From the NCBI RefSeq assembly GCF_045037415.1, contig NZ_CP173438.1: a stretch of 64,000 nucleotides of DNA, one strand, 5' to 3'. Numbering within the stretch: position 1 is the stretch's first letter; each line of letters opens with the position of its first letter. The notes under the pieces are model-generated. The model did no database searches. It was not told where the DNA came from and saw nothing but the letters and a program-made list of their open reading frames with translations. Made by a program: the position numbers and the translations under genes. This stretch comes from Escherichia coli (GTDB taxonomy: Bacteria; Pseudomonadota; Gammaproteobacteria; Enterobacterales; Enterobacteriaceae). Below are positions 9,565-36,233 of the stretch, in pieces.

Positions 9565-9640
9565 TGGTGGCCCCTGCTGGACTTGAACCAGCGACCAAGC
9601 GATTATGAGTCGCCTGCTCTAACCACTGAGCTAAGGGGCC
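9565..9640 (-). tRNA. ileX: tRNA-Ile2 (anticodon CAU, lysidine-modified) or elongator-type tRNA with CAU
   Basis: Reverse complement GGCCCCTTAGCTCAGTGGTTAGAGCAGGCGACTCATAATCGCTTGGTCGCTGGTTCAAGTCCAGCAGGGGCCACCA folds as a cloverleaf with 7-bp acceptor stem, CAT anticodon loop, TTCAAGT T-loop and encoded CCA. Confidence 0.9.
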
Positions 9641-29817: not shown

Positions 29818-29897
29818 CTGGAAAGCGGTTCACAGATCTCGCTTCGTAGCAGGCAGGTCTATTGACGCTGTTGTTTTTTCAACCTAAAGTAAAGGAA

Positions 29898-30045
29898 CAA
29901 GGGTAAGGGAGGATTTCTCCCCCCTCTGATGAGTTGTTAGTAAGTCGGGAAACTTAACAGTAACAACACAACCAGTATGATGACGAACTTCATCATAACC
30001 CTTTCCTTCTATAAGGCCCCTTCCTCGGGAGGGGCTTTCCCGTTT
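29898..30045 (+). ncRNA. sib: Sib-type antisense sRNA (type I antitoxin) overlapping ibs; boundaries approximate
   Basis: Located in the hldE-yqiK spacer, fully antisense to the ibs ORF; candidate promoter TTGACG-N17-TAAAGT upstream and GC hairpin plus T-run downstream. Confidence 0.5.
29937..29996 (-). CDS. ibs: Ibs-family type I toxin, 19 aa hydrophobic peptide
   Basis: Reverse strand ATGATGAAGTTCGTCATCATACTGGTTGTGTTGTTACTGTTAAGTTTCCCGACTTACTAA encodes MMKFVIILVVLLLLSFPTY preceded by an AGGAAAGG SD; matches the Ibs toxin pattern. Confidence 0.75.
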   Translation of the reverse strand: MMKFVIILVVLLLLSFPTY

Positions 30046-32553: not shown

Positions 32554-32822
32554 ATGTCACTCCAATGTCCATTTAGTGACGCAATATTTACTTTGGAATA
32601 GTTTCCTTGATTACTTTTATCTTTGTTAATAATAACACATGTTTGAGAAGTTCTGGAAGAGAAAGTCTTTTAATATGGTTTTTTTATTTTTCACTAAAAA
32701 GTGTGATCGGGGACAATATATTTACGCACGTTATGTTTAAAGGCACTACACTAATTGGGGAATACTGAAATCAGAAAAAGCATATGGCCTTAAAAGGTAT
32801 GCAATAACCGGAGGATGTGCTT

Positions 32823-33023
32823 ATGGATCATAGTCTTAATTCTTTAAATAATTTCGATTTTCTCGCGCGTAGTTTTGCCAGAATGCACGCAGAAGGTCGC
32901 CCGGTCGATATTCTGGCCGTTACTGGTAACATGGATGAAGAACATAGAACCTGGTTTTGCGCACGTTATGCCTGGTATTGCCAACAGATGATGCAAACCA
33001 GAGAACTTGAATTAGAACACTGA
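32823..33023 (+). CDS. glgS: Small surface-composition regulator (formerly glycogen synthesis protein)
   Basis: 66 aa from the second ATG: [66 protein letters not shown]. Confidence 0.9.
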
Positions 33024-33057
33024 TATTACGGGCCGTCTGGCCCGTTTTTGTGGTGCT

Positions 33058-33357
33058 TTATTCTGCTTTATCAACTGGCGGGATAGCCGGAGGAGATTGA
33101 AGTTCTGCTGCCGGATTATTGCGCGCTTCCAGTTCGCTGATGCGCTGCTCCAGTAACGCCAGTTTTTCACGAGTCCGTAACAGGACTTGCGTCTGAACGT
33201 CGAATTCTTCGCGGCTTACCAGATCGAGACGCGTCAGCTGCGCTTGTAGGGTTTGGCGGATTTTTTTCTCCACATCTTCCCCGAACTCCCTGATTCCTTT
33301 AGGCATTGATTCGTGAACCTGGCGAGCGATTTGCTCAATTTTTTTCGGGTCAATCAT
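33058..33357 (-). CDS. ubiK: Ubiquinone biosynthesis accessory factor (BMFP/YqiC family coiled-coil protein)
   Basis: ORF track gives 119 aa; the conserved protein begins [35 protein letters not shown] at codon 21; start choice uncertain. Confidence 0.8.
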
Positions 33358-33477
33358 TGTAGTTTCCCTGTACTGATAGGTGTTGAGTGCCATTGTAGTG
33401 CGATAAGGGTAAGTCATAAACCAGAATTATGTGAAGCTATGCGTTGCTGGCGCTAATCATTAGCGTTATAGTGAATC

Positions 33478-33730
33478 CGCTTATTCTCAGGGCGGGGCGA
33501 AATTCCCCACCGGCGGTAAATCAACTCAGTTGAAAGCCCGCGAGCGCTTTGGGTGCGAACTCAAAGGACAGCAGATCCGGTGTAATTCCGGGGCCGACGG
33601 TTAGAGTCCGGATGGGAGAGAGTAACGATTCTGTCGGGCATGGACCCGCTCACGTTATTTTGGCTATATGCCGCCACTCCTAAGACTGCCCTGATTCTGG
33701 TAACCATAATTTTAGTGAGGTTTTTTTACC
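33478..33730 (+). ncRNA. sroG: FMN riboswitch (RFN element) in the ribB leader
   Basis: Conserved aptamer segments CAGGGCGGGGCGAAATTCCCCACCGGCGGTAAA ... CCGGGGCCGACGGTTAGAGTCCGGATGGGAGAGAGTAACG directly upstream of ribB. Confidence 0.88.
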
Positions 33731-34384
33731 ATGAATCAGACGCTACTTTCCTCTTTTGGTACGCCTTTCGAACGTGTTGAAAATGCACTGGCTGCGCTGC
33801 GTGAAGGACGCGGTGTGATGGTGCTTGATGATGAAGACCGTGAAAACGAAGGCGATATGATCTTCCCGGCAGAAACCATGACCGTTGAGCAGATGGCGCT
33901 GACCATTCGCCACGGGAGTGGTATTGTTTGCCTGTGCATTACTGACGATCGCCGTAAACAACTCGATCTGCCAATGATGGTAGAAAATAACACCAGCGCC
34001 TATGGCACCGGTTTTACCGTGACCATTGAAGCAGCTGAAGGTGTGACTACCGGTGTTTCTGCCGCTGACCGTATTACGACCGTTCGCGCAGCGATTGCCG
34101 ATGGCGCAAAACCTTCAGATCTGAATCGCCCAGGCCACGTTTTCCCACTTCGCGCGCAGGCAGGTGGTGTACTGACGCGTGGCGGTCATACTGAAGCGAC
34201 TATCGATCTGATGACGCTGGCAGGCTTTAAACCAGCTGGTGTGCTGTGTGAGCTGACTAATGACGATGGCACGATGGCGCGTGCACCAGAGTGCATTGAG
34301 TTTGCGAATAAACACAATATGGCGCTCGTGACTATTGAAGACCTGGTGGCATACCGTCAGGCACATGAGCGTAAAGCCAGCTAA
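33731..34384 (+). CDS. ribB: 3,4-dihydroxy-2-butanone 4-phosphate synthase
   Basis: 217 aa [51 protein letters not shown]... Confidence 0.95.
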
Positions 34385-34437
34385 TGACGTGAAATACTAA
34401 ATATGAAAATGCCGGGGTGTTCCCGGCATTTTGCTGT

Positions 34438-35487
34438 TCAGTTATAGTTTATTTTTACGATGAGATCTTTTTTGAAAGGCCCATAAACGAGAGTCTCCCC
34501 CGGTTTTTGTGAAAGTTCAGCCTGGTAATCACGGGTAACCATCGCTCCAGTCTGACCTGGAATATATGTGGTGAAGCGTTTGTACTTATTAAACTTAATG
34601 TCTTCTTGTGTTTTTTGATCAGTAATACGCATTAACAAACCATTACCCATTTCCAGATGCGTATCATCATGTAACGTATCTGTCGTATAAAAACTGGTGA
34701 CAACATCAAATTGCTCGGTACAGTCGGCAGCAACATCTTTTATAGTAGATACGCTAAATGCAGCTTTGGGTCGATAAGTAGCAATAGAGTTTGCAGAGAT
34801 TTGCCCGAAATTAACGATCTGGCTTTCTGGAAAAATACGGACATCGACACTACAATCAAGAAATAAAATATTATTTAATCCATCAATAATATAACGTAGA
34901 TTTTTATTATCTGCTGCTAAGTTAGCACCACCTTCACCATCAAATTGCAGAACATTTACCACGCCAAAATCCCAGGTTTGATCCACTGCTGGACGTGCTT
35001 TAAATTTCACATATGCGCGAAAACGGGCATTAAACGTGACATTTTTTTGTAGGGTGCTGCCATTACAAACTGGATCATGATAAATACCACCATAATACTG
35101 TTCATACTTATCCAGACAGGCGAAAGTATCAATTCCTACATCGCTATCTTCATAGTCCACACCATTATAGGTTACACCGAATGTCAGGTATGGGTTATTC
35201 AAAATGTCTGCACTATTTATAGCCGGCATTTTAATCCAGGCATAAATATTTTCTGCGGGATCATCAGCTCTCCATCCTGTCGCGTTATCACAATATACCG
35301 TAACATTAACGTCATCGCTTTCCCAAATTTTTTGTCCCGGCTGGGCGTTTTCTGGAATTCTGAAGGAAGGTAAAGTACCACGTATTTGTGTATTACCACC
35401 TCTTTGATCCTGATAGCAATTTACAGCATAAACTGAAACGTTATAAAAAAGGCAAAGAATCGCCAGTAAACGGAAAAGCGTAATCAT
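34438..35487 (-). CDS. yqiI: Fimbrial tip adhesin-like protein (chaperone-usher pathway)
   Basis: 349 aa ORF with signal peptide, last gene of a four-gene fimbrial operon; name assigned by position and family, not sequence-verified. Confidence 0.7.
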   Translation of the reverse strand: MITLFRLLAILCLFYNVSVYAVNCYQDQRGGNTQIRGTLPSFRIPENAQPGQKIWESDDVNVTVYCDNATGWRADDPAENIYAWIKMPAINSADILNNPYLTFGVTYNGVDYEDSDVGIDTFACLDKYEQYYGGIYHDPVCNGSTLQKNVTFNARFRAYVKFKARPAVDQTWDFGVVNVLQFDGEGGANLAADNKNLRYIIDGLNNILFLDCSVDVRIFPESQIVNFGQISANSIATYRPKAAFSVSTIKDVAADCTEQFDVVTSFYTTDTLHDDTHLEMGNGLLMRITDQKTQEDIKFNKYKRFTTYIPGQTGAMVTRDYQAELSQKPGETLVYGPFKKDLIVKINYN

Positions 35488-36233
35488 ATTTTTCCCTTCT
35501 TAGCAGGAGAGCTTTGGCAGAGGGATTGGACGGAATTACATTCGACTTTAAACATCTCCAGTCCACCATAGTCAGCAACAAAGCCTAACTGGAAAGTTGA
35601 GGGCAAGTTGTTCAAGTATTGAGTTGCAGAAGCAAACGGAGTCACCATAATGCTGTCTGCACCGGGCATCAGTGTCTTGCCGTTAGTACCGATATACCCG
35701 ACGGTGATGTGATAAGGCGTTGGATTATTGAGTGTCAGCCCTGCAGCGGTCCGTGTTATTGTGACTTTTTGTAAAGGCACCATCTGCCCTTCTTTTAATT
35801 CGATTGCTTTCGGACGCCAGAATAATTTCAGTCGACTCTGCATGGCGATTTGCATCACATTCTGTTCTTTAGTGCGAGGCGGAATTTCCCGCACGTTATA
35901 GTAGAACAGCGTTTCTCTGTCCTGCGGTAAGTTGTTTAATGAGGCCAGCGCCATCAGGCGAATTTGTACCTGTTCATCCGGCTCAATACGTTCCATCGGC
36001 GGCAGTGTTGATATGTAACCACGCGTTTTTTTACCGCTGGCATCTTCAATCCACGACTGAGCCAGATAGGGATCGATTTTACTTTGGTTAGTCAGACGGA
36101 CCGTTGCGCTTTTATTCGAAGCATTAAAAATGATACGTGTCCTGTCGGGGGAGACAGTCGCCTGGGCAAAATTGCAGATCCCCAGTAAACAAATCATTCC
36201 TGTTGTGATTAATGGTGATTTCATTATATTCAT
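35484..36233 (-). CDS. yqiH: Periplasmic fimbrial chaperone (PapD-like)
   Basis: 249 aa ORF with signal peptide and PapD-type N- and C-terminal domains; 4-nt overlap with downstream adhesin gene. Confidence 0.82.
   Translation of the reverse strand: MNIMKSPLITTGMICLLGICNFAQATVSPDRTRIIFNASNKSATVRLTNQSKIDPYLAQSWIEDASGKKTRGYISTLPPMERIEPDEQVQIRLMALASLNNLPQDRETLFYYNVREIPPRTKEQNVMQIAMQSRLKLFWRPKAIELKEGQMVPLQKVTITRTAAGLTLNNPTPYHITVGYIGTNGKTLMPGADSIMVTPFASATQYLNNLPSTFQLGFVADYGGLEMFKVECNSVQSLCQSSPAKKGKI

Follow-up and report, generated by a model that had tools for sequence, protein, structure and literature searches.

The FMN riboswitch, a textbook element, is targeted by antibiotics (roseoflavin, ribocil) and serves as a model of Rho-coupled riboswitch control. 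In Escherichia coli K-12 it has been described in the leader of ribB, which also gives rise to the small RNA SroG (Gelfand, 1999; Vitreschak, 2002; Winkler, 2002; Vogel, 2003; Hollands, 2012; Pedrolli, 2015; PMC11571811). The model in this literature is translational sequestration together with Rho-dependent termination, and a direct, ligand-dependent exposure of a rut site has been proposed for ribB, in place of a termination that only follows blocked translation. The Bacillus subtilis ribD (ribDEAHT) riboswitch belongs to the same RF00050 family and shares with ribB the ligand, the OFF logic over riboflavin biosynthesis and the pause-assisted kinetic sensing. Its platform is an intrinsic terminator/antiterminator, whereas E. 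coli ribB has no terminator hairpin and uses AUG/SD sequestration and Rho. The E. coli thiM/thiC TPP and lysC riboswitches (Bastet, 2017, PMC5499598) likewise combine sequestration with Rho and have a regulatory pause near the start codon, but their ligands and aptamers are different from those of ribB. In the Salmonella mgtA Mg2+ leader, as outlined in Hollands (2012), the conformation of the leader decides on Rho access as it does in ribB, although the RNA and the signal are unrelated.

We analysed a stretch of 64,000 nucleotides of E. coli DNA (the window), in which ribB is preceded by a leader of this type. The K-12 ribB riboswitch has the same promoter, aptamer, anti*-P1 strand, sequestering helix, pauses and 3' ends as that of the window. 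K-12 differs at base 33450 and in the neighbourhood: ygiL-yqiGHI lies between ubiK and glgS in K-12, whereas in the window glgS is next to ubiK and a fimbrial operon follows ribB. The ribB FMN riboswitch of the window is thus already known, and nothing in it departs from published knowledge. The value of the present check is corrective, as it assigns the control to start-codon sequestration and Rho, and separates the predicted ubiK promoter from the riboswitch transcript.

The ubiK-ribB spacer and the ribB promoter

The genes that border the spacer and the signals of ribB transcription are the following:

33058-33357, minus strand: ubiK (yqiC) coding sequence, 99 aa with the start MIDPKK (RefSeq; Pfam BMFP, PF04380, 96.2 bits from residue 1)
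33731-34384, plus strand: ribB coding sequence, 3,4-dihydroxy-2-butanone-4-phosphate synthase (Pfam DHBP_synthase, 279.9 bits; RefSeq)
33444-33472, plus strand: ribB sigma-70 promoter, with -35 TTGCTG (33444-33449), 17 bp and -10 TATAGT (33467-33472)
33479, plus strand: ribB transcription start, +1 of the published numbering, to which published positions map exactly

For comparison we collected RibB relatives at one genome per species, which gave 80 loci, all from Enterobacteriaceae save one from Pantoea. Structures were tested on an alignment of 73 distinct leaders, and the conservation of promoters and spacer was followed in 72 orthologous spacers. ubiK is located divergently upstream of ribB in 79 of the 80 loci; for the remaining one the contig is too short for a decision.

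The spacer between ubiK (minus) and ribB (plus) occupies 33358-33730 (373 bp). The initial annotation had begun it at 33420, which has to be corrected since ubiK starts at 33357. Probably the spacer had been opened there because the longest ubiK reading frame starts at 33417. We rejected this longer frame: the RefSeq start is 33357, the Pfam match begins with the first residue of MIDPKK, and the extension to 33417 is not conserved, since about half of the 72 orthologous spacers have an in-frame stop in it within 18 codons.

Of 5426 complete E. coli genomes, 5425 contain the spacer at ≥95% identity (100% in many of them), and RefSeq labels the matching spacers 'riboswitch' in the same place as our RF00050 match. 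The RefSeq gene order of strain ATCC 11775, i.e., yqiK, yqiJ, glgS, ubiK (minus), 'FMN riboswitch', ribB (plus) and a fimbrial operon, is the order of the window (the identity of GlgS is also backed by Pfam), and the region 32700-34700 reads as E. coli chromosome. Relative to K-12 MG1655 the spacer differs at one base, position 33450 (G here, C in MG1655), which is part of the ribB promoter spacer. From +1 to the ATG, the ribB leader (33479-33730) does not differ from that of MG1655, so the published K-12 results apply to it base for base. With +1 at 33479, the published residues G149, C175, G176 and U181 correspond to 33627, 33653, 33654 and 33659, and the 282-nt construct made of the leader and 10 codons (Eschbach, 2024, PMC11571811) corresponds to 33479-33760. 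Among the promoter-like matches on the plus strand that of ribB ranks first; it ends 7 nt before the published +1, and both TTGC and TATAGT are conserved in it.

Several minor features of the locus were noted. A perfect 7+1+7 inverted repeat, CGCTAAT-C-ATTAGCG (33451-33465), exactly fills the spacer between the ribB -35 and -10 hexamers, an operator-like position. Its right arm is conserved in Enterobacteriaceae and the outer part of its left arm (CGC) is not; the repeat may be due to chance. The matches to the spacer in the E. coli collection numbered 5428, one of them on a plasmid, and at least one genome carries two copies. One complete E. coli genome had no spacer match. As ribB is considered essential, faulty assembly or a divergent allele may account for this genome. 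The 3' third of ubiK (33058-33160) is strongly diverged from K-12 (99 vs. 96 aa, with dozens of substitutions and indels). Next to it, glgS (32823-33023) abuts ubiK, and fimbrial genes (34438-36233) lie beyond ribB. The divergence and the altered neighbourhood suggest a putative recombination or insertion breakpoint inside the end of ubiK.

The FMN aptamer and the expression platform

The elements of the leader are listed below, all on the plus strand and with transcript positions (nt) counted from +1:

33479-33627, plus strand: FMN (RFN) aptamer, helices P1-P6 (RF00050, full model; pairing conserved in orthologues)
33633-33649, plus strand: hairpin H1, nt 155-171 (MFE fold; 5 of 5 pairs compensatory and 96.1% of cells paired in 73 orthologues)
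33653-33661, plus strand: 3' strand of anti*-P1, nt 175-183, which pairs with nt 141-149 (PMC11571811; MFE fold)
33676-33694, plus strand: C-rich block ACUCCUAAGACUGCCCUGA, nt 198-216, single-stranded and almost invariant in 73 leaders
33691-33703, plus strand: 5' strand of the sequestering helix, nt 213-225 (MFE and aptamer-constrained folds; FMN-protected probe 218-227)
33726-33739, plus strand: 3' strand of the sequestering helix, nt 248-261, which covers the AUG (33731-33733) and codons 2-3
33717-33720, plus strand: ribB Shine-Dalgarno sequence GAGG, in the loop enclosed by the sequestering helix and invariant in the alignment
33721-33727, plus strand: U7 tract between SD and AUG, the last two U being in the sequestering helix (pairs 224:249 and 225:248)

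An Rfam scan of the whole window gave three matches above the gathering score, FMN among them. RF00050 was matched over model positions 1-138 of 138 with 120.9 bits (gathering score 66.2, E = 1.1e-27). The initial annotation had seen a complete RFN aptamer in the ribB leader of a divergent ubiK-ribB spacer and had named an Rfam scan as the check; the strong full-length match bears this out. The aptamer ends 103 nt before the ribB ATG (33731) on the same strand, and its P1 is formed by nt 3-10 and 140-147 (33481-33488 and 33618-33625).

All 80 related loci have the aptamer in the 5' UTR of ribB and on its strand, and the RF00050 gathering score was reached in 18 of the 20 that were scanned. Its helices were 99.6-100% paired across the 73 orthologous leaders, and 2 pairs of distal P3 as well as 5 of P4 have changed in a compensatory manner; P1, P2, P5 and P6 are invariant or show one-sided changes only. 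When aptamer, H1 and sequestering helix were taken together, 96.6% of the cells were paired in the 73 leaders vs. 38-50% with the partners slid by 1-3 columns, and 13 pairs (distal P3, P4, H1) showed changes on both sides. For the identical sequence, Kswitch values for FMN of 176 ± 19 nM at P1 and 206 ± 28 nM at the sequestering stem have been published, and FMN protects probes 137 and 218 (218-227) (PMC11571811).

The P3 loop varies in length among the relatives. Two loci, L023 (Pseudocitrobacter, 1124-1385) and L030 (Kluyvera genomosp. 3, 1171-1386), carry an insertion of ∼120 nt there, because of which their Rfam FMN scores (48.7 and 56.9 bits, respectively) are below the threshold. We take this insertion to resemble an ERIC/IRU repeat. 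Insertions of ∼55 nt in the same loop were seen in L013, L017, L019 and L036 (Salmonella arizonae, diarizonae, Citrobacter sedlakii and Kluyvera), which still score 106-110 bits.

Downstream of the aptamer, H1 precedes the published nt 181 pause by ∼10 nt. The anti*-P1 helix was 95.6% paired in the orthologues and lacks compensatory changes; pauses have been published at nt 175 and 181 (33653 and 33659) and at nt 247-249, inside the U7 tract (PMC11571811). The block ACUCCUAAGACUGCCCUGA holds the ON-state partners of two aptamer segments, namely CUCCU (nt 199-203) for GGGAG (136-140) and GCCCUGA (210-216) for UCAGGGC (9-15), and both of these alternative helices are 99-100% pairable in the 73 leaders. 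The 13-bp sequestering helix was 100% paired in the 73 orthologues, and 12 of its 13 pairs never vary. Only one position of the platform varies; there, A216G (a one-sided change) leaves both alternative helices paired. Since the platform helices are almost invariant, they offer little covariation evidence, and the sequestering helix is conserved rather than proven by covariation.

In the folding models, forcing the aptamer keeps the sequestering helix, and the MFE fold of a 247-nt transcript forms 9-15:210-216 instead. The latter fold agrees with published work in which FMN affinity is lost at the pause at nt 247. The constrained folds thus switch states, as predicted for a platform that sequesters AUG and SD and is mutually exclusive with the alternative pairings of the P1 strands. 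The MFE of the full 282-nt RNA was no lower than that of shuffled sequences (z = -0.19); this is as expected of a bistable RNA, and folding energy alone proves nothing here. The published papers themselves leave open how nt 150-210 are structured.

The U-rich tract just before the SD, at which the initial annotation had let the platform end, does exist as a U4 run (33710-33713) directly preceding the SD, but the platform runs on to 33739.

Two other candidates in the leader were rejected. An anti-SD helix of CUCCUAAGA (nt 199-207) with the SD region (nt 232-241), considered as the main OFF helix, is only 83% pairable, has its central pair C202:G237 in 14 of 73 leaders and crosses the better-supported sequestering helix. 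A 46-aa reading frame in the leader (33640-33780), considered as a uORF, has its ATG, a non-conserved one, in the variable H1 loop and has no SD. The short hairpin that follows anti*-P1 (nt 184-194; 33662-33675) is represented by a different GCCG...CGGC hairpin in most genera and is wholly deleted in ∼16 leaders (Buttiauxella, Cedecea and others), which indicates that this part of the platform is dispensable.

Transcript 3' ends, Rho and the short leader RNA

Published Term-seq data of MG1655 were converted to window positions as 3218197 minus the coordinate. Two features were taken from them:

33479-33631, plus strand: short, SroG-like leader RNA with a very abundant 3' end at nt 153 among the Term-seq rows of the locus
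33747, plus strand: 3' end at nt 269 (MG1655 3184450, minus strand), 39,467 reads in the same rows, in ribB codon 6 and 8 nt past the sequestering helix

In the Term-seq rows that cover the locus, the end at nt 153 (MG1655 3184566 = 33631) has 1.35 million reads and was marked as a riboswitch by the authors. The same rows give it a Rho score of 1.80, 'Yes' for significance of the region of Rho termination, and a score of 1.13 as an intrinsic terminator vs. a cut-off of 3.0. The end at nt 269 would be a product of Rho termination or of trimming. A weaker end at nt 41 (33519; 76,112 reads in these rows) falls in the P3 loop region of the aptamer and may be a decay intermediate.

We considered whether the leader ends in an intrinsic terminator of the Bacillus type with its U tail next to the SD, as the initial annotation had implied for the U-rich tract. 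The leader does contain U runs (nt 177-183, 232-235 and 243-249), the run at nt 247-249 is a real pause site, and Pedrolli (2015) is cited as reporting a transcriptional component. However, a terminator scan of 33479-33730 returned no site, and the same scan did detect the nearby terminators of glgS and downstream of ribB. When the best structure ending within 2 nt of each U run was sought, no compact GC-rich hairpin was found abutting any run of the leader: the best candidates were irregular folds of 44-45 nt with -3.8 to -8.3 kcal/mol, while the glgS and ribB terminators are compact hairpins of -13.3 and -16.9 kcal/mol. The main 3' end scores below the intrinsic-terminator cut-off in the Term-seq rows consulted, the U7 run comes after the SD and within the sequestering helix, and in RNAP ChIP a rho mutant no longer controlled ribB at the level of transcription (Rho termination score 3.1). 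We give almost no credence to a terminator platform of this kind. The leader is without an intrinsic terminator, and what its U7 run provides is a pause and part of a helix rather than the tail of a terminator.

The base composition of nt 161-230 (30-35% C, 17-20% G) is consistent with control by Rho, and the C-rich, G-poor zone around ACUCCUAAGACUGCCCUGA is likely to be the Rho-loading site. We consider it nearly certain that the element is the E. coli ribB FMN riboswitch working by translational sequestration and Rho, and that its leader is also the source of SroG. The identity of the aptamer, the conservation of the helices, the absence of a terminator and the promoter-like elements come from the present analysis; FMN binding, sequestration, Rho dependence, pauses and 3' ends come from published work on the identical sequence.

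The proposed course of events is as follows. Transcription from the sigma-70 promoter at 33444-33472 starts at 33479, and the first 149 nt fold into the six-helix aptamer. With FMN bound, P1 (3-10:140-147) would be locked, which would leave nt 213-225 free for nt 248-261; this pairing would bury the AUG, enclose the SD and block initiation by ribosomes. On the untranslated C-rich and G-poor platform, Rho would terminate transcription in and just past the platform, and 3' trimming to the stable aptamer would probably yield the abundant ∼153-nt RNA. When FMN is scarce, 141-149 would pair with 175-183 (anti*-P1), GGGAG 136-140 with CUCCU 199-203, and 9-15 with 210-216. This alternative pairing of the P1 strands would break the sequestering helix, and ribB would be translated and fully transcribed. 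The pauses at nt 175/181 and 247-249 (in U7) would set the time window for FMN sensing. Upstream of the ribB start, a separate promoter lying back-to-back with that of ribB would drive ubiK the other way.

SroG has been recognised as a discrete RNA derived from the ribB leader, and its function 'remains unknown' (PMC7456131). A function of its own, e.g., as a trans-acting RNA or as a sponge that buffers FMN, could be imagined for the ∼153-nt aptamer RNA, given that its 3' end is among the strongest signals in the Term-seq rows listed and that other riboswitch-derived RNAs with roles in trans are cited in the literature. We regard this as unlikely: the literature reports no target or phenotype, the sequence analysis gives no pointer to a target, and the abundance is simply explained by the stability of the FMN-bound aptamer after termination and 3' trimming. 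The ∼153-nt RNA probably arises by trimming back to the stable aptamer.

The predicted ubiK promoter and other features of the window

On the ubiK side of the spacer two candidate signals were found:

33364-33369, minus strand: putative ubiK Shine-Dalgarno sequence AGGGAA, a block that is conserved in Enterobacteriaceae alignments and precedes the ubiK ATG by 6 nt
33392-33420, minus strand: predicted ubiK sigma-70 promoter, with -35 TTTATG (33420-33415), 17 bp and -10 TACAAT (33397-33392)

TTTATG-17-TACAAT is the best promoter-like match on the minus strand, and at least 90% of the 72 orthologous spacers share TACAAT and GGTTTAT. The ubiK transcript is predicted to start near 33384-33386. No experimental start site of ubiK was found in the supplements of PMC4782308 (Cappable-seq), PMC3415461 (Kim, 2012), PMC10301672 (ROSE), PMC11092163 (Rend-seq annotation) and PMC10469882 (EDL933 TSS). 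The predicted promoter is 59-87 bp upstream of the ribB +1; ∼94 bp separate the predicted ubiK start (∼33385) from that of ribB (33479), with 23 bp between the two -35 hexamers. The two promoters would form a back-to-back divergent pair, the ubiK member being a predicted one. Second minus-strand promoters inside the riboswitch were looked for and rejected as weak matches (7 of 12), and an extra ubiK promoter within the riboswitch DNA is unlikely.

It had been expected that the spacer would also hold the ubiK promoter and that the riboswitch termination products might overlap it or interfere with it. A ubiK promoter is indeed predicted in the spacer, but almost wholly outside the interval 33420-33730 first assigned to it. 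From their start at 33479 the leader RNAs extend in the direction opposite to ubiK, and they cannot overlap a promoter predicted upstream of that start; the expected overlap with termination products is not supported. That short terminated RNAs or leader transcription overlap the ubiK promoter and interfere with ubiK expression is extremely improbable in our judgement. The 373-bp spacer is common to both genes, 79 of 80 Enterobacteriaceae loci have retained the arrangement and the predicted RNAP footprints would touch at their upstream edges (∼33424-33440), all of which would favour some interference. However, the sole conserved promoter-like element on the minus strand (33420-33392) is upstream of the ribB +1, and the minus-strand candidates within the leader score lower (7 of 12) and occur in sequence constrained by the riboswitch. 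Among the Term-seq rows retrieved around the locus there was no ubiK-strand 3' end within the spacer. With the back-to-back geometry, any coupling of the two genes would act only through the shared upstream DNA.

A conserved AATTCTGGTTTAT block is present between the ubiK and ribB promoters. The aerobic Ubi hydroxylases are flavoproteins. The promoter pair might provide a shared control that couples flavin supply (RibB) to ubiquinone synthesis, and/or the 153-nt SroG might act in trans, for which the synteny and the abundance of the RNA, respectively, are what can be adduced; we think both very unlikely.

In one relative (Enterobacteriaceae bacterium RIT714, locus L055, ∼1001-1244), an insertion of ∼120 bp that looks ERIC-like by eye is found between the predicted ubiK -10 and -35. 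If the promoter prediction is true, this insertion would disrupt or replace the promoter in RIT714.

Elsewhere in the window, a full-length SIB RNA was detected at 29862-30011 on the plus strand (RF00113, 142.2 bits); it adjoins yqiK and is the RNA antitoxin in a type I toxin-antitoxin locus of the Sib/Ibs kind. A homologue is also located upstream in the Salmonella diarizonae locus L019 (104-251). A tRNA gene at 9568-9640 on the minus strand (73.1 bits) has a CAU anticodon loop (CUCAUAA), and its sequence looks like that of E. coli ileX (tRNA-Ile2), which is a frequent integration site.
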